In this document: positions 20,888 to 37,532 of the stretch, in pieces
How the letters are laid out: every line of letters starts with the position of its first letter
How positions within the stretch are numbered: position 1 is the stretch's first letter
Origin: a virus
IMG/VR virus record: IMGVR_UViG_3300045007_000107
Span: 1-64,000 of that record
DNA length: 64,000 nt
Direction: 5' to 3' (one strand)
Notes under the pieces: model-generated
Told to the model about the DNA's origin: nothing
Seen by the model: the letters and a program-made list of their open reading frames with translations, nothing else
Database searches by the model: none
Made by a program: the position numbers and the translations under genes

Positions 20888-21298
20888 ATGCCGATAACAT
20901 CAAGGTTCAACGGCAATGGCGTAGCGGACGTGCGGGGCCGCTACCTCTTGCCGGGACCGATCTATGGGTTATTCGACAAGGCGCCGCCCATAGGTAACGT
21001 GTACACGCGTCGCGATTGGCGGCTAGAGTACGCCCGGTCCTACTACCGGCGCCAGGAGCTAGACGATCTTTGGTATTGGGTGCTCCCCGCCTTTACCAAC
21101 TACTACAGTGACCCACGAACGCGCGTTATCGTGATCGGCCACATTCTGCTCTGTGGCCTATCGGAGGAAACCCCCCTGGAAGTGGCGCGCTCGCGCCGTC
21201 TCTTCTCAGCCTCCCCCGAAGAACGCGTTAACCGTTACCACGAACTCCACAGGGTCATGTCCCGATGCCCGTCAGGCTCATCCGCCGTATCGGCGTAA
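20888..21298 (+). CDS. hypothetical protein
   Basis: RBS GAGGA. Confidence 0.65.
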   Translation: MPITSRFNGNGVADVRGRYLLPGPIYGLFDKAPPIGNVYTRRDWRLEYARSYYRRQELDDLWYWVLPAFTNYYSDPRTRVIVIGHILLCGLSEETPLEVARSRRLFSASPEERVNRYHELHRVMSRCPSGSSAVSA

Positions 21299-21888
21299 TC
21301 CAGCCCACCCCTCCCCAAGAACAGGAGCCGGCAGTCCCCGCTGCCGCTCCCCCTCCTCCCGTACTGGCTGGCGTTGGAACGCTCGGGCACGCCTTTCAGT
21401 CTCTCGGCGAAGCCGCCGCTCGCCTGATGGTTTCACCCGAGTTTCGTCGTCTAGCTTTCGCCTCGGCGTATGGTATGTCGAGCCTTCGTGCCAATCAGAT
21501 GGTGCAGAGGGCGGCCCCCGTTTTGCCGGACTCTTTACGTCCATACGTTGATCTTGAAGCTTCTTCATTTAGCCTCGACTCCCTCGTCCATGTAGGGATC
21601 GACTATGCCGGGGTCGAAGCCCGTGCGATGTTCTTCGATGAGATCACCCCGCGAGGACTGTTCTATCGTTCGCCACCTCCACCGCGCAGGGACGCTCGAC
21701 TAGAGGCCAAGCTGGCAGAGGTTCCGGTTCGTTGCACCAGCGGGCTCGATGATGACGTGTTTCGGTTCAAGCCTGTCGTCCTGCCGGAACAGAAAGTGAG
21801 CGATGCCGTTGAGCGCGTGGCACACCGCGAGCGAGCCCGCATCATGCGAGTAGGCGCCGATGCGTTACCGTTCCAGCGGCTCAGGTAG
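21265..21888 (+). CDS. RRIG-tag protein
   Basis: Starts MPVRLIRRIG + Pro-rich linker. Confidence 0.7.
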   Translation: MPVRLIRRIGVIQPTPPQEQEPAVPAAAPPPPVLAGVGTLGHAFQSLGEAAARLMVSPEFRRLAFASAYGMSSLRANQMVQRAAPVLPDSLRPYVDLEASSFSLDSLVHVGIDYAGVEARAMFFDEITPRGLFYRSPPPPRRDARLEAKLAEVPVRCTSGLDDDVFRFKPVVLPEQKVSDAVERVAHRERARIMRVGADALPFQRLR

Positions 21889-22120
21889 AAGGCGAATAGT
21901 AAATGGAAAACTGGCGCTTACAGTTGGAATAGTAAATGGATTAGGCCCTGGGTAGGTGGGGTAAGAGCCTCGCGTAGACCCTGTACGTGTACAACTGGAA
22001 TGGGTGTTCTGTTCCGGTGTATGGGAGTCCTTGGAGTAAGACTGACGTAATCAGCTTGTGCCGTAGCAGGGTTTACGATTTACTCGATAACGGGCCGTGC
22101 GGGCCTAGCGGAGCTTTGCA

Positions 22121-22378
22121 ATGTCTGTTACCATCACTCGTGCGAACGTCAACGAACTGCTCGACAAGCGTGTCATCGAAGTGGCGATGCGGTCGGGCAA
22201 ATGGTGGGAGATCCGGCGTAACGGGAAAACCAAAACGTGGAAGAAGGATGCCTCGCGCATCTGCATCCCGTTCAAGTACGGGTTCCGGGGGTGTTCTCAG
22301 ATCACGGAGACGGACTTCCGCGAGGACGGGACGCTCGACCCGACGCAGTACAGGGTCCGAGAGAGCTACAAGGGCTAG
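22121..22378 (+). CDS. early hypothetical protein
   Basis: GUGCG leader hairpin + CGGAG RBS; followed by terminator-like stem 22383-22413. Confidence 0.8.
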   Translation: MSVTITRANVNELLDKRVIEVAMRSGKWWEIRRNGKTKTWKKDASRICIPFKYGFRGCSQITETDFREDGTLDPTQYRVRESYKG

Positions 22379-22442
22379 GACTAAGGGGCGGGCCAGTAAC
22401 CCGCCCTTCTTCTTGCAGACGGCTGCACGCGGGGTTACGATA

Positions 22443-22691
22443 ATGGCAGCAGACCATAGCACGCACACGGTGCTGTTCGAAGACGGCGGTAAGATCGTAT
22501 TCATTCCGCGCGGTAAGTACGTTCACATGGAAGTGACGGACAAGACCGGCAAAACCATCCTCGTACGTGCAAGTGAGAAAGAGGCGCGCAGATGCGTAAC
22601 CCCGATCAAAAAGACAGCGTTCGCGGTGGAAACGAACAAGCACCGATTGGCAAGGGAGTCAATCTCGCCAATCTCCGACCGATCGAGTTAG
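22443..22691 (+). CDS. hypothetical protein
   Basis: 3' part of ORF 21987..22691. Confidence 0.55.
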   Translation: MAADHSTHTVLFEDGGKIVFIPRGKYVHMEVTDKTGKTILVRASEKEARRCVTPIKKTAFAVETNKHRLARESISPISDRSS

Positions 22692-23179
22692 GGGTCGCGG
22701 TCAACCTCTGCCTGTTCACGATGAAGGACCTCCCCACCTTCACGCAGAGCGAGGGCGGCAAAAAGATCCAGGGACTTTACGCGGGTCTCGCGCGCGAACT
22801 GTTGCAAGGCTATACCAACCCGGCCTCAGCCCGCCTTGTGCGTGACCGGATCGCGACGGAGTGCAAGCATCTGCTCACCCTCGTCTCGCCCGAGGAGTAC
22901 AACCCCACCCAGCGGTTCAACATCACCGCCAAGTTCTTCGATGATGCGGCCAAGGCCCTCGGCTGGCACGACAGCTTCTCGCGGTCTGTGCGCGCGGTGC
23001 TATTGGTTAATCGCACCTTTACGCAGGAGCAAAAATCGGTCTTGCAACTTGCAGGGTCGCCCAATATAAACGACCTAGCCATCGACGCGGGCGCGGTAAC
23101 GCTCATGGTTGGGGCCAAGGCACGCGGGTTGTTTTCGTCGGTTGACAAGCTCCCCGTTTTGTCTCAGGCTTCTCGTTAG
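22592..23179 (+). CDS. hypothetical protein (start uncertain)
   Basis: ORF with phage-like codon bias. Confidence 0.65.
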   Translation: MRNPDQKDSVRGGNEQAPIGKGVNLANLRPIELGVAVNLCLFTMKDLPTFTQSEGGKKIQGLYAGLARELLQGYTNPASARLVRDRIATECKHLLTLVSPEEYNPTQRFNITAKFFDDAAKALGWHDSFSRSVRAVLLVNRTFTQEQKSVLQLAGSPNINDLAIDAGAVTLMVGAKARGLFSSVDKLPVLSQASR

Positions 23180-23737
23180 GAATTCGGTTTGCGGTGGCTG
23201 GTTTGCTCCGATTACCAGTCATCGCCGCCGGGGGTAGCGAAGGTGGGGACCGCACTCCCTTCCCGTCGCCAAGACCCCCGGCGCAACTATCCCTAGGTTG
23301 GTCGGAGCCTAGGGTGACCCGGCCGGCATCCCGCCGGTCAACGCGAGGGTAGTCGTCAATGAACATTCTGCGGAATGTTAATCCACCGTTCTTCTGACGA
23401 TCAGGGCCTATGCGGCGGCCCCTAGGGGTTGCCTAGATACTGGATAGGAAGAGGCGACAGTCGTTAGACGACGGCCCATCTCATAGCTAGAGAGGCGCAC
23501 TAGCCCGCCTACCGGGAACGGCACGAGGCATTGACGGTGATACAACCCGAGCCTATGACTGCCCCCGACAATAGGATAGCTTCTGGCCCGGAGGAAGTTA
23601 CGTCTGTATGTGCTGAACCTTAGCAGAGTTATCCTTTGCGGTTCGTCGTTGAGCGGTTCGGCTAACACCCTGCGGAGAGTGGGCTCCGGCAAGACTGTAA
23701 CTTCCTCCCCCGCCGGCCTCTAGGCCGGTTTTATTTT
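23180..23737 (+). ncRNA. candidate large structured non-coding RNA (~550 nt)
   Basis: No + strand ORF; TTGACA-N17-CAGGCT at 23142; many G-U-containing stems, c(UGCG)g tetraloop, 12-bp long-range helix; terminator at 3' end. Confidence 0.75.
23713..23737 (+). terminator. intrinsic terminator
   Basis: CCGGCC-TCTA-GGCCGG-TTTTATTTT. Confidence 0.85.
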
Positions 23738-23740
23738 GCC

Positions 23741-23768
23741 TTGCATTACAAAGAAACTCGTATATAAT
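23741..23768 (+). promoter_or_regulatory. sigma70-type promoter with the palindromic site over its predicted start
   Basis: TTGCAT-N16-TATAAT; TGCAGCCGTCTGCA at 23776. Confidence 0.7.
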
Positions 23769-23802
23769 ACCCTCTTGCAGCCGTCTGCACGGGGTACCTC
23801 TA

Positions 23803-23874
23803 ATGAAGAATTTTGTCGCCTTTGTCTTCTGGTCTATGATCGCGGTTACTGCGGTAATACTGGTGTTCTCATGA
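23803..23874 (+). CDS. 23-aa membrane peptide
   Basis: MKNFVAFVFWSMIAVTAVILVFS; ATGA overlap with next gene. Confidence 0.5.
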   Translation: MKNFVAFVFWSMIAVTAVILVFS

Positions 23875-24401
23875 GACGACTGATACGCACACCCGGCCAG
23901 CGCCTCCCGCCTGACAAGCGGGCGGAACGCAAGGCAAGCATCCTAGGAGATCGCCCCACCGAACCCCCGCAGTACATGGCGGATGTTCGGTGGGGCGAAG
24001 CCGTTGCGGAGGTCGGTCAGGTCAACACCGGCTGCATGTCCAACGGCCTGCATTATGTAGTGCTCAACGATGCGTTGCTTCGCAAGTTCCACCTGTCGAA
24101 GCCCTCGCAGTGCCAACTCATGCTGATGGTACAAGGCGCCGGTCTACACGCCTGCGAGAACACGCAAGAGATGGTTCACCGGTTCACGGTGTTCAACGAC
24201 AGTCGGCACCACCAGCGCGACGGCTACCTCTGGTACCCCGACATGATCGACATGCCGGCGGCCATCGGCGGCGAGATAGGCAGTCGCTATACCGCCGTCG
24301 CATCCGTAAGGTATGAACGATGCTCGTTCACTCCATGGGGCGAGCGGGTATATTTCCAGCCACGCCACGGCGTCATCTATCTAGGGTATGCCTACCGATG
24401 A
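23871..24401 (+). CDS. RRIG-tag-like protein
   Basis: MRRLIRTPG start. Confidence 0.7.
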   Translation: MRRLIRTPGQRLPPDKRAERKASILGDRPTEPPQYMADVRWGEAVAEVGQVNTGCMSNGLHYVVLNDALLRKFHLSKPSQCQLMLMVQGAGLHACENTQEMVHRFTVFNDSRHHQRDGYLWYPDMIDMPAAIGGEIGSRYTAVASVRYERCSFTPWGERVYFQPRHGVIYLGYAYR

Positions 24402-24829
24402 GACGGATGATCAAGCGCATAGGTACGGAAGCGGTTAGCTACGACACGGCGGTCTATGAGTGCCGTGTCTGTGGCGACACCCGCACGATGCTTGGCCTGT
24501 CAAAGGACGCGGTGCATCTCAAGACGCCCCGCTGCGACGGCCTGCCTATGGAGCAAGTCGCGTACAACGCGGACAAGCCGGCCGAACGAGTTCCGCTAGA
24601 GTATAAGCAGAGGCTCGCCTCGGGTACACGGCTCTGGTGCTTGATCCACCGCGAAAAGGGCGACCCGACGAAGCATGATCACGCCGGGCGTAGCCCCAAG
24701 CTCGCTGACAAGGGGTACAAGTATAAGCCTAGCCCCCACGTCGCGGGTAACGAGGACTTCGAGGATCTCTACCTGATGTATGTGGCGGCCAACCCCGGCA
24801 CCGAGCAAGAAGACAAGGAAGCCCCATGA
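24398..24829 (+). CDS. RRIG-tag protein with zinc ribbon
   Basis: MRRMIKRIG; YECRVCG. Confidence 0.7.
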   Translation: MRRMIKRIGTEAVSYDTAVYECRVCGDTRTMLGLSKDAVHLKTPRCDGLPMEQVAYNADKPAERVPLEYKQRLASGTRLWCLIHREKGDPTKHDHAGRSPKLADKGYKYKPSPHVAGNEDFEDLYLMYVAANPGTEQEDKEAP

Positions 24830-25161
24830 GCCAGATCGACATCAAGACCCTCGCCGAGTTCAAGCGGTTCCTCGCCCTCCCCGGCGCGACAGTGCAGATC
24901 GTGCAGCACGACAGTATGCTGCCTATCAATAGGGACGATCCCGAGGCTGTCGCCAAGCGCGAGGCGTTCTTGAAACCTCGTACCGTGGCAAAGGTGCGGA
25001 GCAACACTGTGCAGTTCATCAACGGGTCGTGGCTCCGCCACAAGGCGGCCAGCCATTACCGGTTTCACGGCAACCGGGTGACGATCGATCTCAAGGAAGA
25101 TGGGTCGTTTAGCAAGGTCATGGTCTATGAATGCAGCATCATGGAAGGCGCAAATAACTAG
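24826..25161 (+). CDS. hypothetical protein
   Basis: RBS AAGGA, ATGA overlap. Confidence 0.75.
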   Translation: MSQIDIKTLAEFKRFLALPGATVQIVQHDSMLPINRDDPEAVAKREAFLKPRTVAKVRSNTVQFINGSWLRHKAASHYRFHGNRVTIDLKEDGSFSKVMVYECSIMEGANN

Positions 25162-25223
25162 CCTTGCAGACGGCTGCACGCTATCGTCGCTCTCGGACCC
25201 GTGCGGGGTCCGGGAGCTTTTTA

Positions 25224-25526
25224 ATGGCTAAACGCACCGTCTTTGACGACATCGCCCGGCTCAAGCTCAAGCATGGGCGGGATCGTTCACTAGCCCGGTC
25301 CTTCCCCGACCTGTCCTGCAAGCCCGGTGCACCTTCGCTAAGCGACGGTTTCGCCCCCATCACGGATAACCGGGCTAAAACCTTAGCCGACCGGTTCCGC
25401 AACGAGGAAAAGCGGGTAGCGGATGAGATCGCGGCCAAAGCCTCGCGCATTCGTCCTCACTACAACAAGGGTGCGTATCAGTACGCCACCGATGACGTAA
25501 GCCCTATCGGGATCTATAGGAAATAA
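25224..25526 (+). CDS. early hypothetical protein
   Basis: GUGCG leader hairpin; C-terminal YNKGAYQY. Confidence 0.75.
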   Translation: MAKRTVFDDIARLKLKHGRDRSLARSFPDLSCKPGAPSLSDGFAPITDNRAKTLADRFRNEEKRVADEIAAKASRIRPHYNKGAYQYATDDVSPIGIYRK

Positions 25527-25697
25527 CATGAATACGCTTAGACTTTACGGCCCGTTCACCATCGACCACGGCCCCGTGGACCATGATCGAGGCGACTATG
25601 AGTCCGGCACGTACGTTGTGGTATACTATCACGAGGACTCGGGCGCTGGTACGCGAAACGAGTCCGTTCGCATGTGGTGGTTCCCGTAGGAGAGAAC

Positions 25698-25952
25698 ATG
25701 GCTAAGCAAGACAGAGTACCGCTCGCTCCCGTTATCGACAGCTACGAGGCGCGGGATCGTAAGGGCAAACCCGTTGTCATCGGCTCCACTGGTTACGCGG
25801 ATAACGCGACTGATATTAGGTTCGTGGTCAGCGCGATCATCTTCCGCACCAGCGGAGTCCTGTTCGAGTGCAACTACTTCCACCAGGGCATCCACTACAC
25901 GCTTAACGTTGAGTCGTGGCGCTTCACTGGCAACGGTTACGAACGCGACTAG
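25698..25952 (+). CDS. hypothetical protein
   Basis: RBS AGGAGA. Confidence 0.7.
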   Translation: MAKQDRVPLAPVIDSYEARDRKGKPVVIGSTGYADNATDIRFVVSAIIFRTSGVLFECNYFHQGIHYTLNVESWRFTGNGYERD

Positions 25953-26045
25953 CCTTGCAGACGGATGCAATATGCTTGCGTCGGGGGAGACCCCGGCGCA
26001 TTCTGCGTCTACGGCCCGTGCGGGGTCGCAACCGGAGCAACAGTT

Positions 26046-26393
26046 ATGGGTCTCATCGCGTACATCATGAAACACAAGGGTACGGATTGCTCCAACGGGG
26101 GCCTGTCTTCGCGACACGATGAAGTGACCATCGTGAACGCCGATGGGCCGTTCGATCCGACCGAGGACCGCCCGGCTGTCATTCTCGTGGCCCGTGCGCC
26201 TGTCGGTACGCGCCAGATCCTCACCGCCTATCCTGCGGTGCATCAGGGTGGCAAGTGGGTCAAAGACCCGCGCTGGCTCATGATGGGAGGCACCTACATC
26301 TCGTGCTCGGACAGCCGCTTCGGTGAGTTGTGCAACCGGCTTGGCGTGCCGTTCTATGGCGCCGTTGCCCTCCACGACCGGTACGAGGGTTGA
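26046..26393 (+). CDS. early hypothetical protein
   Basis: GUGCG leader hairpin; DCSNGGLSS...MMGG..DSRF..LHDRYE. Confidence 0.8.
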   Translation: MGLIAYIMKHKGTDCSNGGLSSRHDEVTIVNADGPFDPTEDRPAVILVARAPVGTRQILTAYPAVHQGGKWVKDPRWLMMGGTYISCSDSRFGELCNRLGVPFYGAVALHDRYEG

Positions 26394-26396
26394 TCC

Positions 26397-26705
26397 ATGG
26401 CACGACGGGTAACGACCAAAGAGATCGAAGCTGTCTTCGGTCTTGTCTGCCGCGAGATGGGGTGGTCTCGCGAAGTTCTCCGCCCGGCTACTGCGGGCGG
26501 CCACGATTGGATTGTTGGGTCGGTGCTTATCGACAACAATCCCACCTATGGCGGTCGTCAAGTCGAGATGGTCACCAGCGACACGGGCTCCACCCGCGCG
26601 CTCACCCCCTACCGCCTCAAGCCGGCTGAATTCGAGATATGGTGCCGAGGCGTCCTCTTAGCGAAGGAATACTCCCGTGGTAAAGACAACTCGCGAGCAG
26701 CGTGA
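26397..26705 (+). CDS. hypothetical protein
   Basis: Operonic ORF. Confidence 0.7.
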   Translation: MARRVTTKEIEAVFGLVCREMGWSREVLRPATAGGHDWIVGSVLIDNNPTYGGRQVEMVTSDTGSTRALTPYRLKPAEFEIWCRGVLLAKEYSRGKDNSRAA

Positions 26706-26862
26706 AGCGATCAAACGTGCCTATGATTGCGCCAGGGGCGACATGACCTATCGCGAGTTCCGCAAGAAGGTCACGCCTACCTTCGGGTGCGATGGCGCGG
26801 TCACTGTCCCCTGGTGCGGCTTTTGGCTCTGTATCGAGCGCGACGGCTATACCCATTCCTGA
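26677..26862 (+). CDS. small hypothetical protein
   Basis: RBS AAGGA; ends WLCIERDGYTHS; terminator-like stem 26871-26898. Confidence 0.7.
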   Translation: MVKTTREQREAIKRAYDCARGDMTYREFRKKVTPTFGCDGAVTVPWCGFWLCIERDGYTHS

Positions 26863-26916
26863 TAGAGTTCGCCGGGGGCACTTCGTCCCCGGCATTTTCG
26901 CGAGAAAGGTAATGCG

Positions 26917-27372
26917 ATGATCACCGACGACCAGAAACAGGCCATGCTCGGCCACATGCTCAAACTCAACAGTCCAGACCGTGACGAGGCCAACGCGGCT
27001 GTCGATGGTATTCGTGAGATCCTCGATGAAATCGATTTGCGGCAACCGCCCATCGCCAAGCAGAAGGCCGATGCACGAGCGCAGCGTACGGTCTGGATCG
27101 ATAGCTGCGGAGAGAAGTACGCGGCCTACGACGACGAGGGTAAGGTTATACCCGATACCCTTGCAGCCAGTGTGGGGGACGTTGACCGTATAGTCAGCGT
27201 TATGTCGATCCCTGATGGTCACTTGGAGCACGTCCAAGCTATCGCTATAATGGCTCCCGCCGGTTGGGCGGGCCTGCGTATGAAAGGTCGTCCTCAGACA
27301 GATACTTCCGCCGTGCAGCCGTCTGCAAGACCCAAGCGTAGAATGCGCGCGGGTAACAACGAGGAAAGCTAA
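26917..27372 (+). CDS. hypothetical protein
   Basis: RBS GAAAGG. Confidence 0.7.
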   Translation: MITDDQKQAMLGHMLKLNSPDRDEANAAVDGIREILDEIDLRQPPIAKQKADARAQRTVWIDSCGEKYAAYDDEGKVIPDTLAASVGDVDRIVSVMSIPDGHLEHVQAIAIMAPAGWAGLRMKGRPQTDTSAVQPSARPKRRMRAGNNEES

Positions 27373-27698
27373 TGATCGCCTCCGAAATGCAATCTATCCT
27401 GGCGGTGCTCTACGAGTATAAGGGCACCTGTCTGACTATCGCCGCGTTACTTCTCGCACGGTACTACATCAAGTGGTCATAGCCCAATGAGCGGCGTCGA
27501 AAATCTAGCGCGGTGGTACACCAGGGCCGATGACACGGACAAGCGTGAGGGCGCCCTGGCCTATCCCCGATATCACCGCGTGATGCAGGGCCTCGCCGAC
27601 TTGTGGAAGACAATGGTCGATCCCGAGAGCATTAAACCTTACCCGTTGATAGCTAAACGTGATACAGTTGAGGCAGCACCTCAATAAGGCACGCCCAC

Positions 27699-28241
27699 AT
27701 GCCCCGATTTCTTCGAAGAATTGGACGCCTCTACAGCAAAGAAGCGTCGGCGCAAGAGCCCGACCCACAGACCCAACGCATGATCGCTGACCCGTCTGCG
27801 CCGGGGTGTGATACGTGTCGGTTCATGTCGAGCATGACCCACCGTTGCCTCAATCGCAACAGCCCCTACTATAGGCGACCCGTAGGGGTGGACGATGCTA
27901 TGACGTGCCGCTTCCACTTGAGCGGAGACCGTGATCGGCGCACACAGCAGTTCGTGGATCAGTTTGCAGAGTCCTTGGTCGCGCAGACCCCCGCATTTCC
28001 CGCCGGTGAGACGCCCGTCGATCACTTACGCAGTATGCGAGCGATGGACGCGCTGTTGACGCCGGGCGCGGTACAGGGTGGTCATAATGGCTGTTTCTCT
28101 TGTGCCTACAACACGCGGCGATCCGAAGGTGTCGGCTACCAGGGATGTCACTATCCCGGCAGTCAAATGGACCTCGATCCACTGGACGACGGGCTGCGCT
28201 GTCCCGAATGGACACGTGCGCCCGACGCTGAACCTAGGTAG
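27699..28241 (+). CDS. RRIG-tag protein, two 4-Cys domains
   Basis: MPRFLRRIG; CDTC..C..C and CFSC..C..CPEW. Confidence 0.75.
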   Translation: MPRFLRRIGRLYSKEASAQEPDPQTQRMIADPSAPGCDTCRFMSSMTHRCLNRNSPYYRRPVGVDDAMTCRFHLSGDRDRRTQQFVDQFAESLVAQTPAFPAGETPVDHLRSMRAMDALLTPGAVQGGHNGCFSCAYNTRRSEGVGYQGCHYPGSQMDLDPLDDGLRCPEWTRAPDAEPR

Positions 28242-28324
28242 CGGAAAATAGCTTGTGCGCGTGACGGCTTCTGCTACCTTGCAACCGGGCGACCGTGCGG
28301 CGCCCTATACGGAGCAAAGGGACA

Positions 28325-29011
28325 ATGGCTAAGGATCACATCATCGTTATGGTCGAGAGCCTGCCGGCTCGCCCGCAATTCGAGGCGGCGAAGAACGCCC
28401 CCAAGGGTCGGGTTTTCGGCAGCTACACCCACACTCTGCGCGAGGACGGTGAGCACGACGAGATCGACAACCCCGAAGTCTGTACGATGCCGGAACTCTG
28501 TGCGCGTCTGCTCAACGAGGGCGGCAAGGGTATTATTTTCGTGCCCTATACCCACCATACCGAGGGTGATGTTCACTTCTGCATCGTCGTAGCGGGCATC
28601 ACGCGCGAGCAGGAGGCGCAAGCCCGTATCGAGGAAGAGATCCACCGCCTCACCCGCAAGAGTATGCTGATCGGCGGCCTCTTCGGCGCCTTATTCGGCA
28701 GCGACCGAGCCGAGGACGGCGACGGTACCCTTTCCGGCCGTGCGGCCATCAAGAAACACACCGAGGCGCTGACGCCGGGGAGCAAGATCGTAGTCATGCC
28801 GGCCAACTATCGCGGCAACGATCCCGAGCAACGTGTAGAAGTTCCGTACGCGACCTACAACCGCCTCATGGAACTCGAAATGATCGACCCCTGCCCGGTT
28901 TGCACCCTGCGCGAGGATCGGCTTGTCTGCCATACCGAAGACGACTATACTATGGAGGATGTCCTGCGCATCGTCCGCGAGCCGATCCCGAACGCCTCGC
29001 CGAAGCTGTAG
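28325..29011 (+). CDS. early hypothetical protein
   Basis: Promoter TTGTGC-N16-TACCTT, leader hairpin, RBS. Confidence 0.8.
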   Translation: MAKDHIIVMVESLPARPQFEAAKNAPKGRVFGSYTHTLREDGEHDEIDNPEVCTMPELCARLLNEGGKGIIFVPYTHHTEGDVHFCIVVAGITREQEAQARIEEEIHRLTRKSMLIGGLFGALFGSDRAEDGDGTLSGRAAIKKHTEALTPGSKIVVMPANYRGNDPEQRVEVPYATYNRLMELEMIDPCPVCTLREDRLVCHTEDDYTMEDVLRIVREPIPNASPKL

Positions 29012-29077: not shown

Positions 29078-29107
29078 CGGGACGTGCGGTCCCACGGAGC
29101 AACGACC

Positions 29108-29644: not shown

Positions 29645-29710
29645 CGCTTGCAGCCGTCTGCACGTCGCGTATTATCGATCTTGCGCCGTGCGGGCGCATC
29701 GGAGCCAGCC

Positions 29711-30046: not shown

Positions 30047-30277
30047 TGGCGATCAACGAACAGATCAAGTTTCGACTGATACAGATGCCGTGCTGCGGTA
30101 CGCTCTCGTGTTGGGTCAATCCCCGCCTTCCCACCTATTGCGCGGAATGCGGTCAGAATGTCTACCTCCGGCTCAAGTCGGGGGGGGTATACGCGCATGG
30201 AGTCGGACGGTTGGCTCAAGGTCAACGATCCTACCATGCACCGCCTGCCTTCCGACCCCGAGTAAGGAAACCGTTCC

Positions 30278-30496
30278 ATGGCATCGCATCTCGCCCACAA
30301 GGACTATCGCGACCTCACCCCGGAGGAACAGGACTACATCGACCGTGAGGGCGGACCCTTCTATGTCATCCACCCTCGTGCCCTATGCGTCTTTGATTAT
30401 TGGTCCGAGGCGTGGGAGTTTGCTCTCGACCTACAAGAGACCTACGACGGTAACAAGTCTCGCGCCACGGTCTACCATTCAGGACAGTATACATAG
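30278..30496 (+). CDS. hypothetical protein
   Basis: RBS TAAGGA. Confidence 0.65.
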   Translation: MASHLAHKDYRDLTPEEQDYIDREGGPFYVIHPRALCVFDYWSEAWEFALDLQETYDGNKSRATVYHSGQYT

Positions 30497-30583
30497 GAAA
30501 TTCTTTGCAGCCATCTGCAAGCAACTGTTGCCGGGGGAGTGATCCTCCGGTATACTTGTTTTAGGACCTATGGATCGGAGCCT

Positions 30584-31054
30584 ATGTCCAAGTTTCTACT
30601 CTTCCTACAACTCGTGATCCTGGTACAGCTTGGTACCCTCTGGCACGATTACGGCTTCAAGCTGTTTGCAGTCGTGCTCGCCATTCTGCTGTTCGGTACC
30701 CTGCGCGGTGCGCTCAAGGCTGAGCAGCAGATGAACGAGCGGATGCATACCTGTGAGCGGTGCCAGCGCAAGTTTCACGGAGCGATGGTCGAGAGGTGCC
30801 AGTTTGAGGGGTGCGTCCACGATGCCGGCGCCCTGAACAGGTTATCCGAGCAACTTACCGTCGCCCTACGTCTCGCTAACGAACGGGCAACGGCCCCTCG
30901 CCCTACAGCGGCGCAATTGCGCGCCACACGCCCGCGCCGCGTTATTCGCGGACTATCCCCCTCCCCTACCGTCGAGCCAGCCCATGCGTCGCCTAATACG
31001 GATAAAGCCCCGACAACAGAAGATCTCCCCCGCGCCTTCTACGACGGGTCTTGA
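30584..31054 (+). CDS. membrane protein with small zinc motif
   Basis: Two N-terminal hydrophobic helices; CERC..C..C; RBS CGGAG. Confidence 0.65.
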   Translation: MSKFLLFLQLVILVQLGTLWHDYGFKLFAVVLAILLFGTLRGALKAEQQMNERMHTCERCQRKFHGAMVERCQFEGCVHDAGALNRLSEQLTVALRLANERATAPRPTAAQLRATRPRRVIRGLSPSPTVEPAHASPNTDKAPTTEDLPRAFYDGS

Positions 31055-31370
31055 GCAACTGTTCTCGCACGGTGCCAACGACCTTCCGCGCGCAGTAACT
31101 GCTATCCGCAGAGATAAGCCGATCACCGCTGTCGTGACATACGTTCGGGTCGAGCACAACAAGTTCAAGAACTGCCCGCAGGTTACCCTCAAGGGTGCCG
31201 ACGACGGCGCGGGGTGGAACTGGTATAGCGTGTACGAGCCGAGCGGCAAGCTGTCCCACAATGTAGGAACGTACTCGGGTCCGTACATCGTTGACTTTAG
31301 CTTTATTAAAGAAATGATCGATAGGTTTTACGAAAAGCCGGTCAACGAGCTAAGTGCGGAGGACTTCTAA
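30984..31370 (+). CDS. RRIG-tag-like protein
   Basis: MRRLIRIKP; stop coupled to next start. Confidence 0.6.
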   Translation: MRRLIRIKPRQQKISPAPSTTGLEQLFSHGANDLPRAVTAIRRDKPITAVVTYVRVEHNKFKNCPQVTLKGADDGAGWNWYSVYEPSGKLSHNVGTYSGPYIVDFSFIKEMIDRFYEKPVNELSAEDF

Positions 31371-32143
31371 TGCCGAGACTGATCAGACGCATAGGGCACG
31401 CTCCCGCACTCCCACCCCCGCCCGAGAATGTTTGGCCGGGGTTTCGCATTCTGTCGGGGTACAAAGTCTATTGCGGCGACAGGGACTTGCGCGAGGTCTA
31501 TGTTCTGCACGGGATCAACTGTGACGCCGCAGGATCACCCCACGAGGATGCGGACACCTTGCGGGAGCAGTTTTTCTCGTCGCCTTATGACGCGCGAACA
31601 GGACAAATGCAGGTAGGTTACGGAGAGATCGATAACTGTTTCAGTGGCCGGTATCCCGAACGCCTGCCCGATAAGGTGCGCGAGGCGTGCTACGATATTC
31701 TTCATGATGCGCAGGAATACGTCACTTGTCAGATCCTATTTCCGCCCATGACCGGCGACTTGCAGCCGTCTGCACGTGTTGATGTACGCAGACCTATCGA
31801 TCCTCCCGCACTAGGTCGTATCGAGGATCACCCCGATGTGAGCGCCCTGCCGCCGAACACGGTGATTTGCGAGGGTTGCGGTCGGCTGAGCTATGAGCAC
31901 GTACGACACCCGCGCTGCTGTCCTGATAACAGTTTCCATCGCCTCGATACACAGCGGGGTCGCATTGCTGTGCGTCAGTTTCGTCGCCACCAACAGATAC
32001 GTAGTGACGTATGCGTGGCGTGCGATGCCCTAGAGACAAACGACTTTGGGCGGAGTTGTCGCTTCGGGATGAGTAGTCCGCGCAACCGCACCTCGTGTAC
32101 CATGCACACGTCGTTAGCTTATCGCCGAGAGAGGAGGAGCTAG
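31370..32143 (+). CDS. RRIG-tag protein, C-terminal 4-Cys domain
   Basis: MPRLIRRIG; CVAC..C..CTMH. Confidence 0.75.
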   Translation: MPRLIRRIGHAPALPPPPENVWPGFRILSGYKVYCGDRDLREVYVLHGINCDAAGSPHEDADTLREQFFSSPYDARTGQMQVGYGEIDNCFSGRYPERLPDKVREACYDILHDAQEYVTCQILFPPMTGDLQPSARVDVRRPIDPPALGRIEDHPDVSALPPNTVICEGCGRLSYEHVRHPRCCPDNSFHRLDTQRGRIAVRQFRRHQQIRSDVCVACDALETNDFGRSCRFGMSSPRNRTSCTMHTSLAYRRERRS

Positions 32144-32898
32144 TGCCAGCCCGCGTTCTTCGCAAGATTGGTATACCGCTACCGCCTCCGGTTAAGGAAC
32201 CCCTGCCGCGCATACCGGACAGCGATAGCTCACGCCCACAGTATGGTTTGTGCGGTAGCTGCCGGTATAAAGGTAGTATGGAGCCGGACCGGGGCGGTGA
32301 ATGGTTATGTGGTGTCTCGCGCCTGTATGTCAGCAATAGTCATTTCATTGATGGTGGCGAGTGTTCTCACTACGAGGATGTATCCGTCCCTGGAACGATT
32401 ACCATAGACGCTAGTCAGATAGTCGTAGGGTCGATAATGGCAGACCAGATAGTTGCGGGCTCTATCGGTGTCGATAGAATAATGGTCGCTGATAATGTGG
32501 CCGAGCAATTAATACAAGATGTGCGAGAGGCGCAGTTAGTTGGCGCGCTTACCTCCGAACAGATAGAGCAGATAAACAGCCATACCCTAGTAGGTGGGCT
32601 CAGGGTCACGAACGAACCAGTACCTATCGCGCCACGCATCACGGCCGCACATAGGCTCACAGGAGTGCGTAGAATAAGGGACAGGGCGCGCGTGTTGTTT
32701 CTGGTCTATATGGAGTTGGACATACAGCAACAGGGTATGGCGACCGAGGTGATGCCTGTTGAGGTCATGTACGACCATCACGGAAACCTCAATGATCAGC
32801 GCCTCTATTATGTGCCGCAAAGCTTAGGTGTTGGCGAGGTATATCGCATTACCCGAGCTACAAGAGAGCGACTTGACGGGGAGTTTGTCGAGCTATGA
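32143..32898 (+). CDS. RRIG-tag protein, 4-Cys domain + tail-fibre-like repeats
   Basis: GTG after AGGAGGAG; PARVLRKIG; CGSC..C..CSHY; IDASQIVVGSIMADQIVAGSI. Confidence 0.75.
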   Translation: MPARVLRKIGIPLPPPVKEPLPRIPDSDSSRPQYGLCGSCRYKGSMEPDRGGEWLCGVSRLYVSNSHFIDGGECSHYEDVSVPGTITIDASQIVVGSIMADQIVAGSIGVDRIMVADNVAEQLIQDVREAQLVGALTSEQIEQINSHTLVGGLRVTNEPVPIAPRITAAHRLTGVRRIRDRARVLFLVYMELDIQQQGMATEVMPVEVMYDHHGNLNDQRLYYVPQSLGVGEVYRITRATRERLDGEFVEL

Positions 32899-33137
32899 GA
32901 AGATCTTTACGCAAGATCGGCCCGGCCGAGGAAGCACCTGTCAAGGTTACGCCTTTGATGCGGGCTAACGCTACTATGAAGGTGAGGCCCAACCGGGCAA
33001 GCCTCTGTAAGATGTGTACGCTCCGCGACCGTCTCGCGTACAACGCGCGGGGTCTTATCGTGTGCTCGTGGTCTATGATCGAAACACCCGAGGACACGCC
33101 AATCACAAAGTGCCCCTACTATGAGTGCGTGATATGA
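32895..33137 (+). CDS. RRIG-tag protein, one 4-Cys domain
   Basis: MRRSLRKIG; CKMC..C..CPYY. Confidence 0.75.
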   Translation: MRRSLRKIGPAEEAPVKVTPLMRANATMKVRPNRASLCKMCTLRDRLAYNARGLIVCSWSMIETPEDTPITKCPYYECVI

Positions 33138-33637
33138 AGCGCCAATTACGCCGCATAGGCTTGCAGCCATCTGCACCCGCGCCTCCACCCCCACCAGAAC
33201 CTAGCGATGCGCGATCCTGCGATACGTGCCGGTTCAACAGGAAGGCAAGCATTTACTCTACGCCGCCGCATGAGCTGATTATTCATTGCTCGGGCAGGAT
33301 CGGGGTCGGGTATACTACCCTACGAACCAACTGCCACGGATGGGAGGCAACCGTACCTCACCACGTCGGATCTCTCTGCAATAGGTGCGTACACGGTACA
33401 GTACACTACGATCATCCTGTTCATGGGATAGCGGTTAATTGTACGAGGTTTACCACGCAACGGATCGCATACGCCACTGAATGTCGTGATTATCGCGATG
33501 AAGAGATGCAGGCACACTTTCGCCGAGCCGCTGAGGAAGAGGCTATGTACGCGGCTACGCTACCCGATCCGCCTGCCCCTTGGTACGCGCGCTTGCGGGA
33601 TCGTCTGATGTGGTGGTGGGGAGGTTACAATGCATAG
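33134..33637 (+). CDS. RRIG-tag protein, two 4-Cys domains
   Basis: MKRQLRRIG; CDTC..CHGW; CNRC..CRDY. Confidence 0.75.
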   Translation: MKRQLRRIGLQPSAPAPPPPPEPSDARSCDTCRFNRKASIYSTPPHELIIHCSGRIGVGYTTLRTNCHGWEATVPHHVGSLCNRCVHGTVHYDHPVHGIAVNCTRFTTQRIAYATECRDYRDEEMQAHFRRAAEEEAMYAATLPDPPAPWYARLRDRLMWWWGGYNA

Positions 33638-34007
33638 GCTCTTACGCAGGATCGGGCGTATACCGCCCACCATCGTCACCCGAGAGCAGACTGCTCACAT
33701 CACCCGCGCAGGCCGTGTCCACGAGACTATCGTTCACCTCTCGCCGGCCTCCCTAGGGGACGAGATCAATGCAGGCGAGCGCGTTATCTCTATAACCGAG
33801 GAAAGCCGCTATCAGGAGAGGGAAATGGACGGGGAACGTATCCTCTATCCTGTAGCGCCCACGGGTACCCGCAAGGTCGAGACTATACGCATCGAGTCCA
33901 ATTGGGATGGTAGCAGCCGTATCCGTAAGCGCACCTACCGAGAATTCATGGACCAAAGCGGTGACGTGCAACGCATGATTATCGAACAAAGCTGGGAGTA
34001 TCAGTGA
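33630..34007 (+). CDS. RRIG-tag protein without Cys domain
   Basis: MHRLLRRIG; RBS GGAGG. Confidence 0.75.
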   Translation: MHRLLRRIGRIPPTIVTREQTAHITRAGRVHETIVHLSPASLGDEINAGERVISITEESRYQEREMDGERILYPVAPTGTRKVETIRIESNWDGSSRIRKRTYREFMDQSGDVQRMIIEQSWEYQ

Positions 34008-34297
34008 TGCTACGTCGCATCAAAGGCATCGGTAGACCGAGACCTGTGCAGCCGTCTGCAACCGAGCAACCCTCCGTGGAGCCCCCACGGAGGGTTGAAC
34101 TACTTAAAGCGGTACCTGTAGGGCGGAAGTGCCATAGTTGCGTCTACCGTACGGAACTTCTGCCCCTGTACCACCGGGACACGAGAACCAACGACCCGCC
34201 GCAGGTAAAGGGCTATACCTGTCCCATCGTCTCGCGGCACTACCCTCTGGACGATGGTCCGCGCATCTGCAACCGACATGAGCCCACGGGGATCTAA
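34004..34297 (+). CDS. RRIG-tag protein, one 4-Cys domain
   Basis: MLRRIKGIG; CHSC..C..CNRH. Confidence 0.75.
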   Translation: MMLRRIKGIGRPRPVQPSATEQPSVEPPRRVELLKAVPVGRKCHSCVYRTELLPLYHRDTRTNDPPQVKGYTCPIVSRHYPLDDGPRICNRHEPTGI

Positions 34298-34299
34298 TC

Positions 34300-34893
34300 A
34301 TGCCTCGCAAGATCAGACGCATTGGGCGTGAGACTCCACCGCGACCGGCACCCGCCCCTGAGCCTCCGCGCGGGAACTACAAGCGCAACTCTAACACAGG
34401 GCACTCATGTAACTACTGTATCTACCGGGAGCATCACGTCTATAACAAGTGGAGCCCCGACTTCCCTGAGCGCGCGTGGTGCCCGGTCGCTAACACAACC
34501 TACGTGACCGACAGCAGCAGGGATCAGGTTACGGTGTGCGGCACCTTCCGCGCGGGCGATCACGTTGTGGTAGCAGTGGAACCTACCATCGATACGCTCC
34601 TTGAGATGGTGGGCGCCACAAGTCAGGAGGAAGCGCGGCGTCGTGGTCGGCATACTATTGCTGGTACGGTAACCGGACGTGCGAGTTCCACGCGCGGTCT
34701 CACTGATTTCCCCCTAGAAGTCATGCCCGAGGACTCCATCTGCCGTACCTGTCGCCATCGTGATCATATACGCGCTAGGCTTCGTCGGTCGGAAGCGGGT
34801 ACTGACGTGCGTTCGTGGGCGTGTAACCACGCATTGCGCCAGCGTATATATGGTGCCGGGGTTCGGACATGCCAGTCATGGGAACAGGACTAA
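34300..34893 (+). CDS. RRIG-tag protein, two 4-Cys domains
   Basis: MPRKIRRIG; CNYC..CGTF; CRTC..CQSW. Confidence 0.75.
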   Translation: MPRKIRRIGRETPPRPAPAPEPPRGNYKRNSNTGHSCNYCIYREHHVYNKWSPDFPERAWCPVANTTYVTDSSRDQVTVCGTFRAGDHVVVAVEPTIDTLLEMVGATSQEEARRRGRHTIAGTVTGRASSTRGLTDFPLEVMPEDSICRTCRHRDHIRARLRRSEAGTDVRSWACNHALRQRIYGAGVRTCQSWEQD

Positions 34894-35321
34894 TGGCTAA
34901 GGAACCAACCCCCAAAGCTCTCGCCCGCCGTCGTGAGCGCGAGCGTATGACGGAGGAACAGAAAGAGCGGGAGCGCGAACGTAAACGCGCTTCGGCCAAG
35001 CGGCATCGGGAAAGCGAGAATGCTCGACAGCGTAAATATATCGCCGCGCATCCCGAACTAAGAGCCTACTATCGGCGGCGCTACAGCCTGCGCAAGATGA
35101 AACCCCACAACGCGAAAAAGCGTACAATAGAGATCATGGCCGAACTACAGGCCAAGGCACCCAGGCATCACGGTCGCGAAGAGATCATCGCGGCGGCGAC
35201 AATGTTCGTACTAGAGGGCGATACCGTCGAAGTGGCGCTCGCCAAAGCCTCGAAACAGCACAACGCCGAGACACGTATCCAGCGGTCGAGCACCAACTTC
35301 GAAGAAGCGTATTGGCTATGA
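34893..35321 (+). CDS. Arg/Glu-rich basic protein
   Basis: Coupled start; RERER repeats. Confidence 0.7.
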   Translation: MAKEPTPKALARRRERERMTEEQKERERERKRASAKRHRESENARQRKYIAAHPELRAYYRRRYSLRKMKPHNAKKRTIEIMAELQAKAPRHHGREEIIAAATMFVLEGDTVEVALAKASKQHNAETRIQRSSTNFEEAYWL

Positions 35322-35836
35322 AGCGCATTATCCGAAACATAGGCAGCATCGCGCCCTTGCAGCCGTCTGCAATCCCCGAGTTTACCGCCACGATTACCGG
35401 GCGGCCTCCGTTCGATGAGCACGGCAATCCGCACGTGCGGGGCGTCTGCGCGCGTTGCACCTCTCGCAGACGCTTTACCTTCGACGCCCAGCGACAGGAG
35501 TATACCTGCCCTCGGATAGATCGCGTGATTACACCTGGCGGCGGGCGTACCGAATGTGCATCCTATGACCTCGACATGCCCGAGCATGATCGCCGCCGTA
35601 CAATCCAGCAGTCATTCAACGGTCCTGCCGCTCGTCCTCCGAACCTAGACATCGTGGGTCGAACCTCCGACTGTCATACCTGTAATGCGGCGTGGAGTAT
35701 CGACCGCGTCTCTCCCTCTCACTGGCGGTGTCCTCGTATTGCTCGCACTCTCGCCAGCGCGGTCGGTATCGTTAACTGTTCCGGCTATGAGCATGATCTC
35801 GAACTCTACCGTACTGCCCCATGGGAGCCTGACTGA
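35318..35836 (+). CDS. RRIG-tag protein, two 4-Cys domains
   Basis: MKRIIRNIG; CARC..CPRI..CASY; CHTC..CPRI..CSGY. Confidence 0.75.
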   Translation: MKRIIRNIGSIAPLQPSAIPEFTATITGRPPFDEHGNPHVRGVCARCTSRRRFTFDAQRQEYTCPRIDRVITPGGGRTECASYDLDMPEHDRRRTIQQSFNGPAARPPNLDIVGRTSDCHTCNAAWSIDRVSPSHWRCPRIARTLASAVGIVNCSGYEHDLELYRTAPWEPD

Positions 35837-36096
35837 TGCTTACTCTCGATACTGTTCGCGCTAACATCTTCGCAGGAGATCCGTTAGCTAAATCACCAGA
35901 TGAGGTGACCGATACAGGTACAGCAATCGAAATTGCCGGTATCGATGACGGTACAGAGTTCCGTGAAGACCTACGTTTCGTTTCCGAGGGCGATGGCGTA
36001 GAGCTACTTGTGCGCGATCCCGGTACGGTTTCGTGGAACTCGCACGGCGTCTTTCGTGATTGGCGCGAGCTTCATATATGGATTTACGAACTATGA
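35836..36096 (+). CDS. hypothetical protein
   Basis: Coupled start TGATG. Confidence 0.65.
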   Translation: MLTLDTVRANIFAGDPLAKSPDEVTDTGTAIEIAGIDDGTEFREDLRFVSEGDGVELLVRDPGTVSWNSHGVFRDWRELHIWIYEL

Positions 36097-36184
36097 ACCA
36101 GCGGGCTCGTCTTACCCTGGCCGTTATGCTAATCGGTACGGCGGTTCTCATCACTGCTTGCATTCGCGGGATATGGTCGCTGAT

Positions 36185-36886
36185 ATGAAACGCTTGATCA
36201 GAGGGATCGGCCGCCAAGAGCTACGTACCGAGGCAACCACTCAGCGCATCTTGGATAAGTGCGACAGCATCATCGGCGTATTACAAGAAGGTATTGCTGC
36301 AAGCCCCAGCCCGATAGCATCTCAACTTCATGCGGACAGTCTGTGTCGGCGGTGCCCCCACCAGAACCGGATTAGGCAGAACCCGAACGTTCCTCGTAAC
36401 CCGGCCGAGGTCTACTGTCCTGCGCACGACTACTACTTCAATGCTCATGTGCCGGTCGAGTCCTGCGCGCGGTATCATCGCGATGTAATACAGCCTAACC
36501 CTCCCTGGGAGCGCCCAGCGCGGTCTATCACCGAAGTGGGCCTACCGCCTATCCCCGAGGGTAGTATCTGCGAGTCGTGCCCTCACCGTGCTACAAGACA
36601 TTATGCGCGCGGCGAGAGTTATGTCCATTGTAATTCGCCCGAGCAACTCCACACTGTAGCGATAGGTGCGACCATATACTCGTGTACCAGCTACCCTCCC
36701 GAACGTGTCCAACGCGCGGTCGTATACGATACACCTCGTGAAAGTCAATGCAGGACATGCTTACACGGGACTCGCCTAGTCCGCTCTAGTGTCAATCCTG
36801 AACGCGGTGCTGTATGTCGTCAGGCAGATCGTCGGTTCACTACAGACGCTGTAATACAACAGTGTCACGATTATAGGGCTTTCTGA
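36185..36886 (+). CDS. RRIG-tag protein, three 4-Cys domains
   Basis: MKRLIRGIG; CRRC, CESC, CRTC units each ending CxxY. Confidence 0.75.
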   Translation: MKRLIRGIGRQELRTEATTQRILDKCDSIIGVLQEGIAASPSPIASQLHADSLCRRCPHQNRIRQNPNVPRNPAEVYCPAHDYYFNAHVPVESCARYHRDVIQPNPPWERPARSITEVGLPPIPEGSICESCPHRATRHYARGESYVHCNSPEQLHTVAIGATIYSCTSYPPERVQRAVVYDTPRESQCRTCLHGTRLVRSSVNPERGAVCRQADRRFTTDAVIQQCHDYRAF

Positions 36887-36887
36887 T

Positions 36888-37532
36888 ATGCGTCGGCTCA
36901 TTCGCGGGATCGGTATTACACCTGTATTACAAACGGTTGCAGAGCCGTCACGCTATCAGGACGCGGTCGTATCCCGTACCCATGAAGAAAACATCTGTAG
37001 GCACTGCCAGCACTCCGACTGCCTGAGCTACGCGTCCGGAGAGCCGGGCCAACTTGCGGACGTTCGATGCGCCCATGCCGGTCATAGCTATCCAGGCGAC
37101 GTCGGTCTGTCGGACTGTATCGACTACCAGCGTATTACAGGTCCAAGCGTAACGTCGAACTCCCAGCGCGCGGTCGTTGATCTATTACCCCAAGACAGTC
37201 TATGTCGTCAGTGTAGCTTCTCTCCCCGTCTATACGCCCACTCCGAGGAGGACGGTATACCGGGAACAGTTACCTGTCGGTATACGGGTTACACCACAGA
37301 CATCAACGTACCGGTGCGCGAGTGCTCGGCGTATTACACGTACTCGACACCACATTCCCAACGCGCGGTCGTTGATACCTTACACCCTAATACCCTATGT
37401 AGACAGTGCAGGCACGGAACGTCTATCCGACCATACAATAGATCACCCGAGTGGTATGCCTGCCCTGTAGCCGACCGCTATTTCAGACCCTACAACTTCA
37501 TCCTCTCATGCCGGTCTCTGGTACGTCTCTAG
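36888..37532 (+). CDS. RRIG-tag protein, three 4-Cys domains
   Basis: MRRLIRGIG; CRHC, CRQC, CRQC units with SQRAVVD linkers. Confidence 0.75.
   Translation: MRRLIRGIGITPVLQTVAEPSRYQDAVVSRTHEENICRHCQHSDCLSYASGEPGQLADVRCAHAGHSYPGDVGLSDCIDYQRITGPSVTSNSQRAVVDLLPQDSLCRQCSFSPRLYAHSEEDGIPGTVTCRYTGYTTDINVPVRECSAYYTYSTPHSQRAVVDTLHPNTLCRQCRHGTSIRPYNRSPEWYACPVADRYFRPYNFILSCRSLVRL

Follow-up and report, generated by a model that had tools for sequence, protein, structure and literature searches.

The first 64 kb of the 101.7-kb IMG/VR record IMGVR_UViG_3300045007_000107 (hereafter the window) contain 15 open reading frames (ORFs), all on the + strand and spanning positions 21265-37532, that open with the same nine-residue pattern, M-x-R-x-[IL]-[RK]-x-I-G (hereafter the tag). 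The record is that of a tailed phage, with a CheckV completeness of 79%. A replication block at 0.7-20 kb (DnaB-like helicase, family A DNA polymerase, primase, helicase, RecA-like protein, and exonuclease) is followed on its 3' side by a block of small genes at 21-53 kb, and then, in order, by a glycosyltransferase, a ParB-like protein, TerS, TerL, the portal, and the head and tail genes, while a classic AAA ATPase module lies close to the genome end. The tagged genes form an early/accessory block between the replication and the lysis/structural modules, and the ORFs of this region tile end to end. Rfam and tRNA scans of the window returned no Rfam family and no tRNA.

All 15 tag sites listed in an initial annotation of the window are present in the sequence. 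Fourteen of its positions were kept, and the 11th start was placed at the ATG at 34007, since position 34004 is a GTG one codon upstream. A loose regular expression for the tag, run on the six-frame translation of the whole 101.7-kb genome, gave 17 matches, 15 of which are the tagged ORF starts (21.2-37.5 kb), whereas in 100 shuffled genomes the matches, counted anywhere in the translations, averaged 2.4 and never exceeded 9. When the heptapeptides behind the initial Met of all called proteins were clustered without a predefined pattern, one N-terminal cluster (n=14) emerged, compared with clusters of three or fewer in 30 control sets of internal heptapeptides, and this analysis adds a possible 16th, degenerate tag at 28295 (Table 1). 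When the tags are aligned on their Gly (position 0), Arg at -6, [IL] at -4, and [RK] at -3 are each found in 15/15, Gly in 14/15, and Ile at -1 in 13/15, the ends of the tags at 23871 and 30984 being deviant. The tags carry three or four basic residues, at two invariant basic positions among others, for a net charge of +3 or +4, and Arg3 is never replaced by Lys in the 15 carriers.

Independent public gene calls include six of the tagged ORFs with exactly the tagged lengths, and two others are called from an internal Met. At least 8 of the 15 tag ATGs overlap the upstream stop codon or sit within about 2 nucleotides (nt) of it, and a Shine-Dalgarno sequence is absent at many. The tagged ORFs have a weak codon bias, with a GC content at third codon positions of 0.63 against 0.66-0.90 in core genes, as expected of accessory genes that are young and have a high content of Cys, Arg, His, and Pro.

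Conservation and shape of the peptide

The invariant Arg of the tag is encoded by all six Arg codons, from both the CGN and AGR families, and the codons at the Ile/Leu position vary among ATH, CTT, and TTA. Across the tag codons, the mean pairwise nucleotide identity at codon positions 1, 2, and 3 is 0.54, 0.70, and 0.28, rising to 0.66, 0.87, and 0.30 when the five conserved codons are taken by themselves, while the 18 nt 5' of the tag ATG show an identity of 0.24-0.32, which is that of chance. As both the third codon positions and the upstream DNA are at chance level, selection acts on the tag peptide, which is under strong purifying selection at the protein level; that synonymous sites are saturated although the peptide is maintained rules out an RNA or DNA element conserved at the start. 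The initial annotation had stated that the peptide rather than its codons is conserved, and the codon-position identities and the use of six Arg codons bear this out.

Behind the tag, the next 20 residues contain 19.3% Pro, compared with 5.4% in the proteome, with a high column entropy, in agreement with the Pro-rich spacer described in the initial annotation. No 15-residue Kyte-Doolittle window in the first 60 amino acids (aa) exceeds 1.3, and because there is no such hydrophobic window, the tag is not a Sec or Tat signal peptide. That annotation was correct in excluding both pathways, there being no h-region and the linker being rich in Pro.

Treated as a helix, the tag has a mean hydrophobic moment of 0.73, compared with 0.24 when treated as a strand. 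Met1, [IL]5, and Ile8 fall on one helix face, and Arg3 and [RK]6 fall on the other; the spacing of the conserved positions suits a helix rather than a strand, and Gly is a common helix C-cap. The N-terminus of MreB and the C-termini of MinD and FtsA are membrane-targeting amphipathic helices, and the tag might in the same way be a cationic two-turn helix that lies on the inner membrane and anchors proteins there via the linker. A high hydrophobic moment and a cationic polar face, both of which the tag has, are necessary but not sufficient for this. The mean moment of the tag exceeds those of MinD (0.41) and FtsA (0.61) computed in the same way, and its charge and its terminal position ahead of a linker fit as well. 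Nevertheless, the tag is only nine residues long and has no aromatic residue, and the related P-L-R-K motif described below has too little hydrophobic surface for lipid binding. Moreover, membrane helices usually conserve only a pattern, whereas the invariant Arg and the Gly point to specific recognition; that Arg3 is never Lys argues for a specific pocket rather than for bulk charge or generic electrostatics. We consider membrane targeting quite unlikely.

The tagged region also contains candidate nucleic-acid elements, to which the initial annotation had tentatively linked the tag. Seven + strand hairpins with a GUGCG loop are found at 22.0-38.6 kb, and the ORF-free stretch 23180-23737, which has no Rfam match, has a far more stable fold than its shuffled versions (z = -4.4), with a terminator-like hairpin at its end. 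The arginine-rich motif of lambda N binds boxB, motifs of this type being expected to form an Arg-dominated helix (five or more Arg) with a cognate hairpin upstream of regulated genes, and the tag could similarly be an Arg-rich arm that binds the GUGCG hairpins, the 23180-23737 RNA, or the DNA of a 16-bp palindrome, thereby tethering its carriers to transcripts or to the genome. In support of this, the invariant Arg lies at the N-terminus as in lambda N, the hairpins and the folded stretch are at hand, and almost every protein with the related motif handles DNA. However, two invariant basic positions against three conserved hydrophobic ones are unlike known arginine-rich motifs, there are 15 tags for seven hairpins, Rfam recognizes no known RNA family in the window, and several of the intergenic hairpins lie just 5' of untagged genes, some of them being terminator-like (the one at 25189 is followed by a T-run). 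No link between the tag and either the hairpins or the presumed noncoding RNA could be shown, and we give the nucleic-acid arm little probability.

The 16-bp near-palindrome itself (TGCAG-CCGT/ACGG-CTGCA) has 44 copies in the genome, for example at window positions 8778, 15196, 34048, 35359, and 59334. Copies inside genes encode LQPSA and often fall in the linker, 20-100 nt past a tagged start. Relatives have LQTSA or LQVPA in comparable positions, suggesting that the arms are shared and that the centre is specific to the lineage.

Bodies of the tagged proteins

Ten of the 15 tagged proteins carry one to three copies each (18 in all) of a four-cysteine (4-Cys) module with the pattern CxxC-x(8-32)-C-x(6-28)-C-x2-[aromatic/His]. 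ORFs 36185 and 36888 match one another with a BLASTP E of 1e-14, other pairs match weakly, and the ten proteins are a lineage-specific paralog family. The full module is missing in the other five (21265, 23871, 24398, 30984, and 33630), which show no significant mutual similarity. The tag thus sits on bodies with no detectable resemblance to one another (21265, 23871, 30984, and 33630) as well as on the 4-Cys family. The initial annotation had described 15 unrelated cargo proteins; this description stands for the five other bodies but not for the ten paralogs, and common descent therefore explains much of the sharing of the tag.

The 4-Cys module retrieved no significant Pfam, PDB-sequence, or fold match. 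A single one of the 18 modules matches Zn_Ribbon_TF (E 9e-4), and the best E in a PDB profile search was 0.12. Two AlphaFold2 runs gave a CxxC knuckle followed by three strands with a predicted local distance difference test score (pLDDT) of 64, and fold searches with these models returned nothing over noise (VIA Z below 3, Foldseek E above 1). It is plausible that the module is a metal-binding ribbon.

The paralogy of the ten proteins bears on the explanation that the tag has no common reader. According to this explanation, the tag is a relic of serial duplication of one ancestral gene, retained through some constraint local to the first codons (for example, re-initiation following translational coupling), and the bodies outside the 4-Cys family arose by replacement downstream of the linker. 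Besides the paralogy itself, the close spacing of at least eight tag ATGs to an upstream stop, the many starts without a Shine-Dalgarno sequence, and the weak codon bias are all in keeping with it. Against it, the synonymous sites are saturated, yet five residues are fixed and Arg is maintained by CGN and AGR codons alike, which a nucleotide constraint would not do, and the protein bodies have diverged beyond recognition while the tag has not. We think it distinctly improbable that there is no common reader.

An exhaustive profile search with the tag, the linker, and the first module against 1.84 billion representative proteins gave 7 matches, each as long as one of the window's tagged ORFs (one match being called from an internal Met); the two matches that were read in sequence are the window's own proteins or a one-residue variant. 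A word-indexed search with the 36888, 23871, and 30984 proteins found only proteins of this phage, four tagged proteins had no tblastn match in 50,697 phage records, and Pfam searches with the tagged proteins returned nothing. On these searches, the tagged cargo proteins are ORFans, no homolog having been found outside this phage. Similarly, scans of viral contigs with the 19191 protein and of metagenome contigs with the 27699 protein found no relative with the tag region, and a TerL profile run against 185,579 species genomes found no prophage relative. A degenerate DNA pattern for the tag is absent from ten TerL-related records, and a stricter pattern gave four isolated matches and no cluster among all viral contigs.

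Table 1. Positions of the tagged ORFs, of P-L-R-K-type terminal motifs, and of GUGCG-loop hairpins in the window
Feature	Position	Strand	Description
Tagged ORF 1	21265..21888	+	207 aa; MPVRLIRRIG at 21265-21294; Pro-rich linker; no 4-Cys module
Tagged ORF 2	23871..24401	+	176 aa; MRRLIRTPG, deviant end; no 4-Cys module; public gene call starts at internal Met
Tagged ORF 3	24398..24829	+	143 aa; MRRMIKRIG; partial CxxC...C pattern only
Tagged ORF 4	27699..28241	+	180 aa; MPRFLRRIG; two 4-Cys modules
Possible 16th tag	28295..29011	+	GTG start; VRRPIRSKG, degenerate; alternative ATG ten codons downstream
Tagged ORF 5	30984..31370	+	128 aa; MRRLIRIKP, deviant end; no 4-Cys module
Tagged ORF 6	31370..32143	+	257 aa; MPRLIRRIG; one clear 4-Cys module near C-terminus
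Tagged ORF 7	32143..32898	+	251 aa; GTG start overlapping upstream stop; (M)PARVLRKIG; one 4-Cys module and a different C-terminal body
Tagged ORF 8	32895..33137	+	80 aa; MRRSLRKIG; one 4-Cys module
Tagged ORF 9	33134..33637	+	167 aa; MKRQLRRIG; two 4-Cys modules
Tagged ORF 10	33630..34007	+	125 aa; MHRLLRRIG; no 4-Cys module
Tagged ORF 11	34007..34297	+	96 aa; MLRRIKGIG; one 4-Cys module
Tagged ORF 12	34300..34893	+	197 aa; MPRKIRRIG; two 4-Cys modules
Tagged ORF 13	35318..35836	+	172 aa; MKRIIRNIG; two 4-Cys modules
Tagged ORF 14	36185..36886	+	233 aa; MKRLIRGIG; three 4-Cys modules
Tagged ORF 15	36888..37532	+	214 aa; MRRLIRGIG; three 4-Cys modules; paralog of ORF 14
LPLRKVTLG	5542..5568	+	Near C-terminus of family A DNA polymerase
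MPLRKIAKA	15158..15184	+	N-terminus of exonuclease-like protein
RPLRKLSIS	56468..56494	+	N-terminal extension of TerS-like protein
PPLRKVPPP	57118..57144	+	N-terminal extension of TerL, upstream of the part aligning with relatives
MVLRKLPVQ	59311..59337	+	N-terminus of 215-aa protein
MPLRKLHPT	62416..62442	+	N-terminus of portal protein
GUGCG-loop hairpins	22092-22106, 25189-25217, 26012-26028, 29079-29093, 29682-29698, 38304-38318, 38539-38553	+	

Between tagged genes, positions 34869-35321 encode a 150-aa protein that has no tag and contains an Arg/Glu-rich repeat (RERERMTEEQKERERERKR).

Related terminal motifs in the phage and its relatives

A shorter core, φ-R-[RK]-φ (φ, hydrophobic), occurs at 48 sites in the called proteome, 27 of which lie in the terminal 15% of the protein length. 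With the 15 tags left out, φ-R-[KR]-φ is found at 15 terminal and 17 interior sites, a 4.9-fold terminal excess per residue (binomial p 2.5e-5), and for L-R-K-φ the terminal excess is 8.8-fold (p 2e-4). Motifs of the type P-L-R-K-[LIV] are located at the C-terminus of the polymerase, the 5823 protein, and the glycosyltransferase, at the N-terminus of the exonuclease, a MerR-like protein, TerS, TerL, the 59311 protein, and an RHH protein, and both at the N-terminus and near the C-terminus of the portal (Table 1), and their codons differ at synonymous sites. Tags such as RVLRKIG and RSLRKIG include the φ-R-[RK]-φ core, and in sequence terms the accessory tag reads as this core with an invariant Arg added upstream and a closing Gly.

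The relatives of this phage have TerL proteins with 45-58% identity in IMG/VR, and those of a wider group have 24-38%. The M-x-R-x-I-R-x-I-G tag is absent from all relatives fetched. In G001, a 90-kb relative that is 96% complete and has a TerL 49% identical, about 12 ortholog families carry a basic-hydrophobic peptide on the same terminus, outside the aligned domain (helicase, polymerase at both ends, SSB-like protein, RecA, glycosyltransferase, ParB-like protein, TerS, TerL, portal, and others). The consensus of these peptides is a different one, M[AP]I[KR][KR]R or R-φ-φ-φ-RK, and heptapeptide clustering gave a significant N-terminal cluster in this genome too. The N-terminal extension of TerL is present in the closer clade and mostly missing in distant relatives (38% identity or less). 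From these comparisons, terminal labelling of DNA-handling proteins is a trait of the clade, with a sequence that differs between lineages, and the fifteen-fold expansion on accessory proteins is specific to this phage.

We would like to note that a further terminal motif in a distant relative (G012) was considered as a mirror image of the tag and rejected. Seven proteins of that genome, encoded on the minus strand (genes 24510, 24899, 34201, 34548, 36165, 38775, and 41209), end in K-R-A-[IVF]-x-[LI]. All seven of their stop codons lie within an ATGA or GTGA overlap with the next start, and the K-R-A codons (AAR MGR GCN) are purine-rich and at the distance of a ribosome-binding site, the sites of this genome being AAGGGAG-like. 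Because the ribosome-binding site of the next gene and the start-stop overlap explain these ends best, they are not counted as support, and they call for caution with C-terminal basic motifs at large. A ribosome-binding-site explanation does not apply to the N-terminal tags of the window.

Between TerL and the portal, the window encodes two adjacent paralogs (60934-61482 and 61483-61875) with a C-terminal C-x2-C...C...C-P-x-W-x-F-R-x-G-T-N-P motif. The first of the pair has an acidic tail, and the pair is kept at this place across the clade.

The distribution of the related core is relevant to the destination proposed in the initial annotation, which had read the tag as a sorting signal into the capsid or onto a shared scaffold. 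As a capsid-targeting sequence (CTS), the tag would load proteins into the procapsid for injection. T4 internal proteins are directed by a short N-terminal CTS (PMC3012670), and here too a short N-terminal peptide is the sole feature common to diverse small proteins; furthermore, the related motif is present on the portal and on a scaffold/protease-like protein. In contrast, no residue suited to a maturation protease is conserved after the tag, the entropy at +1 to +20 being 2.2-3.3 bits per column (although a cryptic site for this phage's own protease may exist), the genes belong to the early/accessory block, and the proteins bearing the core include the polymerase, exonuclease, TerS, and TerL, none of which belongs to the contents of the head. 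Capsid loading was accordingly set aside as very improbable.

The main rival to the reading that we prefer below is that the tag is a tether or degron for an AAA+ unfoldase, docking on the N-domain of the host ClpX as the XB peptide of SspB does, docking on the phage AAA ATPase, or acting as an N-terminal degron, so that early accessory proteins would be remodelled or cleared on schedule. The XB peptide (RGGRPALRVVK) ends a flexible linker leash and binds the ClpX N-domain, which also recognizes lambda O, MuA, UmuD, and the FtsZ tail (PMC3983244). XB is functional wherever it is placed, and it turns eGFP into a ClpXP substrate, with ClpXP-dependent decay (PMC12373786). The tag likewise lies at a free N-terminus in 15/15 cases with a disordered stretch behind it, its core R-φ-φ-[RK] resembles XB, and the phage encodes a PF00004 AAA ATPase with an N-terminal region of about 360 aa. 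Nevertheless, the resemblance to XB was judged by eye over four to five residues, and the replication and packaging enzymes that bear the P-L-R-K motif would be odd substrates for a protease. A co-occurrence of the phage AAA ATPase with the motif was rejected because 9 of the 10 more distant relatives tested have the ATPase, while TerL in those relatives mostly has no terminal motif. Overall, we regard an unfoldase tether or degron as unlikely. The ATPase gene itself is located at genome positions 96009-97943, its N-terminal region has no assigned function, and DUF1257-like genes follow it.

A candidate docking peptide and its known counterparts

We tentatively favor the reading that the tag is a portable amphipathic docking helix, or address, read by one shared partner, more likely at the site of replication and packaging than in the capsid interior, although we hold this to be somewhat short of an even chance. 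The helix, amphipathic and two turns long, would span residues 1-8 (M-x-R-x-[IL]-[RK]-x-I) and be capped by Gly9, and a disordered Pro-rich leash would part it from the protein body. Purifying selection keeps the tag on at least 15 early/accessory proteins, ten of them in a private, fast-evolving, and probably metal-binding 4-Cys family and five with other bodies. A single shared partner, most likely a protein, would grip the helix and gather the carriers at one place, presumably where the phage DNA is replicated and packaged. An address or docking label fits best because of the codon-level evidence, the strict N-terminal placement, and the Pro-rich tether; the replication/packaging site is likelier than the capsid because the core is also found on the termini of the polymerase, exonuclease, TerS, TerL, portal, and other DNA-handling proteins. 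The sorting signal proposed in the initial annotation is thereby retained as a peptide-level address on accessory proteins with no Sec or Tat character, while its capsid destination, its link to a noncoding RNA, and its wholly unrelated cargo are not.

Several points weigh against a docking peptide. As the tag was found in one phage lineage only, its conservation between genomes cannot be measured, and no reader of the tag was identified. Ten of the 15 carriers are paralogs, and their common ancestry, combined with any constraint on the N-terminus, could have produced this pattern as well. The tag and the P-L-R-K motif are connected by a four-residue core, which could be a coincidence of basic-hydrophobic composition, and some of the C-terminal basic motifs are confounded by the ribosome-binding site of the next gene in these compact genomes. 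Finally, AlphaFold2 models the tag as coil (pLDDT about 60); a coil model is usual for peptides that fold on binding, and this prediction is no evidence either way.

As a candidate hub, the protein encoded at 16691-18130 was considered as a sliding clamp and dropped, having no Pfam or PDB sequence match and a poor Atlas model. This protein and that encoded at 11685-12596 look highly expressed and have Ala/Lys/Pro-rich tails (AAPKAAAPAKAAPAKA, AAKPAAKPAAA) that look like those of histone H1 or AlgP, and the net charge of the 11685-12596 protein is -36.

An extension of the docking-peptide reading, which we offer as speculation and think rather unlikely, is a two-class address code. In such a code, P-L-R-K-φ would mark the replication, recombination, and packaging machinery and M-x-R-x-I-R-x-I-G would mark a diversifying library of 4-Cys effectors. 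One hub would read both labels and organize a viral factory around the DNA of a tailed phage of medium size, for which no nucleus-like shell is known, and label and reader would change in step from one lineage to the next.

With a shared terminal address peptide, a phage can direct an entire set of proteins to its destination. Very few such peptides are known in phages, and the known ones have become tools for packaging or degrading chosen proteins. Once found, the reader of the tag would show how a 100-kb phage organizes its early proteins and would provide a first functional handle on the 4-Cys family, and the tag could become a nine-residue portable tag for this phage group. The initial annotation knew of no description of the tag, and our literature search likewise found nothing relevant. 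To our knowledge, the tag has no sequence resemblance to the T4 CTS. Shared terminal address peptides as a kind are already known, for example from the CTS of T4 (PMC3012670).

Known examples of address peptides include those of the T4 internal proteins, encapsulin cargo, and ClpX adaptors. Like the T4 CTS, the tag is a short N-terminal peptide that is the only conserved part of diverse small phage proteins (15 ORFs, five of them with no 4-Cys module) and is portable in principle. It differs from the CTS in having no conserved protease site, in its early/accessory genes, and in the related motif on replication and packaging enzymes. The lambda N/boxB system shares with the tag region a short N-terminal helix containing Arg and hairpins with a constant pentaloop in the same region; in contrast, the tag has far fewer Arg, conserved hydrophobic residues, 15 carriers rather than one, and intergenic hairpins of which several precede untagged genes. 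The helices of MreB, MinD, and FtsA are, like the tag, terminal, cationic, strongly amphipathic, 9-15 residues long, and followed by a linker, and the tag departs from them in its invariant Arg and Gly and its lack of aromatics.

The ClpX-docking peptides such as SspB XB are also short, basic-hydrophobic, and terminal with a long flexible leash, and one hub domain reads XB and phage proteins too. By eye, over four to five residues, XB resembles the tag in R-φ-φ-[RK] and the P-L-R-K motif in P-x-L-R-x-V. XB is C-terminal and binds ClpX as a strand (PDB 2DS8), whereas the pattern of the tag fits a helix. Lastly, the cargo-loading peptides of encapsulins and the encapsulation peptides of bacterial microcompartments are, like the tag, short and terminal; they are often amphipathic helices with poorly conserved linkers, and a single shell protein reads them on unrelated cargo. 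Their sequences differ from the tag, no shell is evident here except the phage capsid, and the carriers of the related motif include enzymes that act on free DNA.

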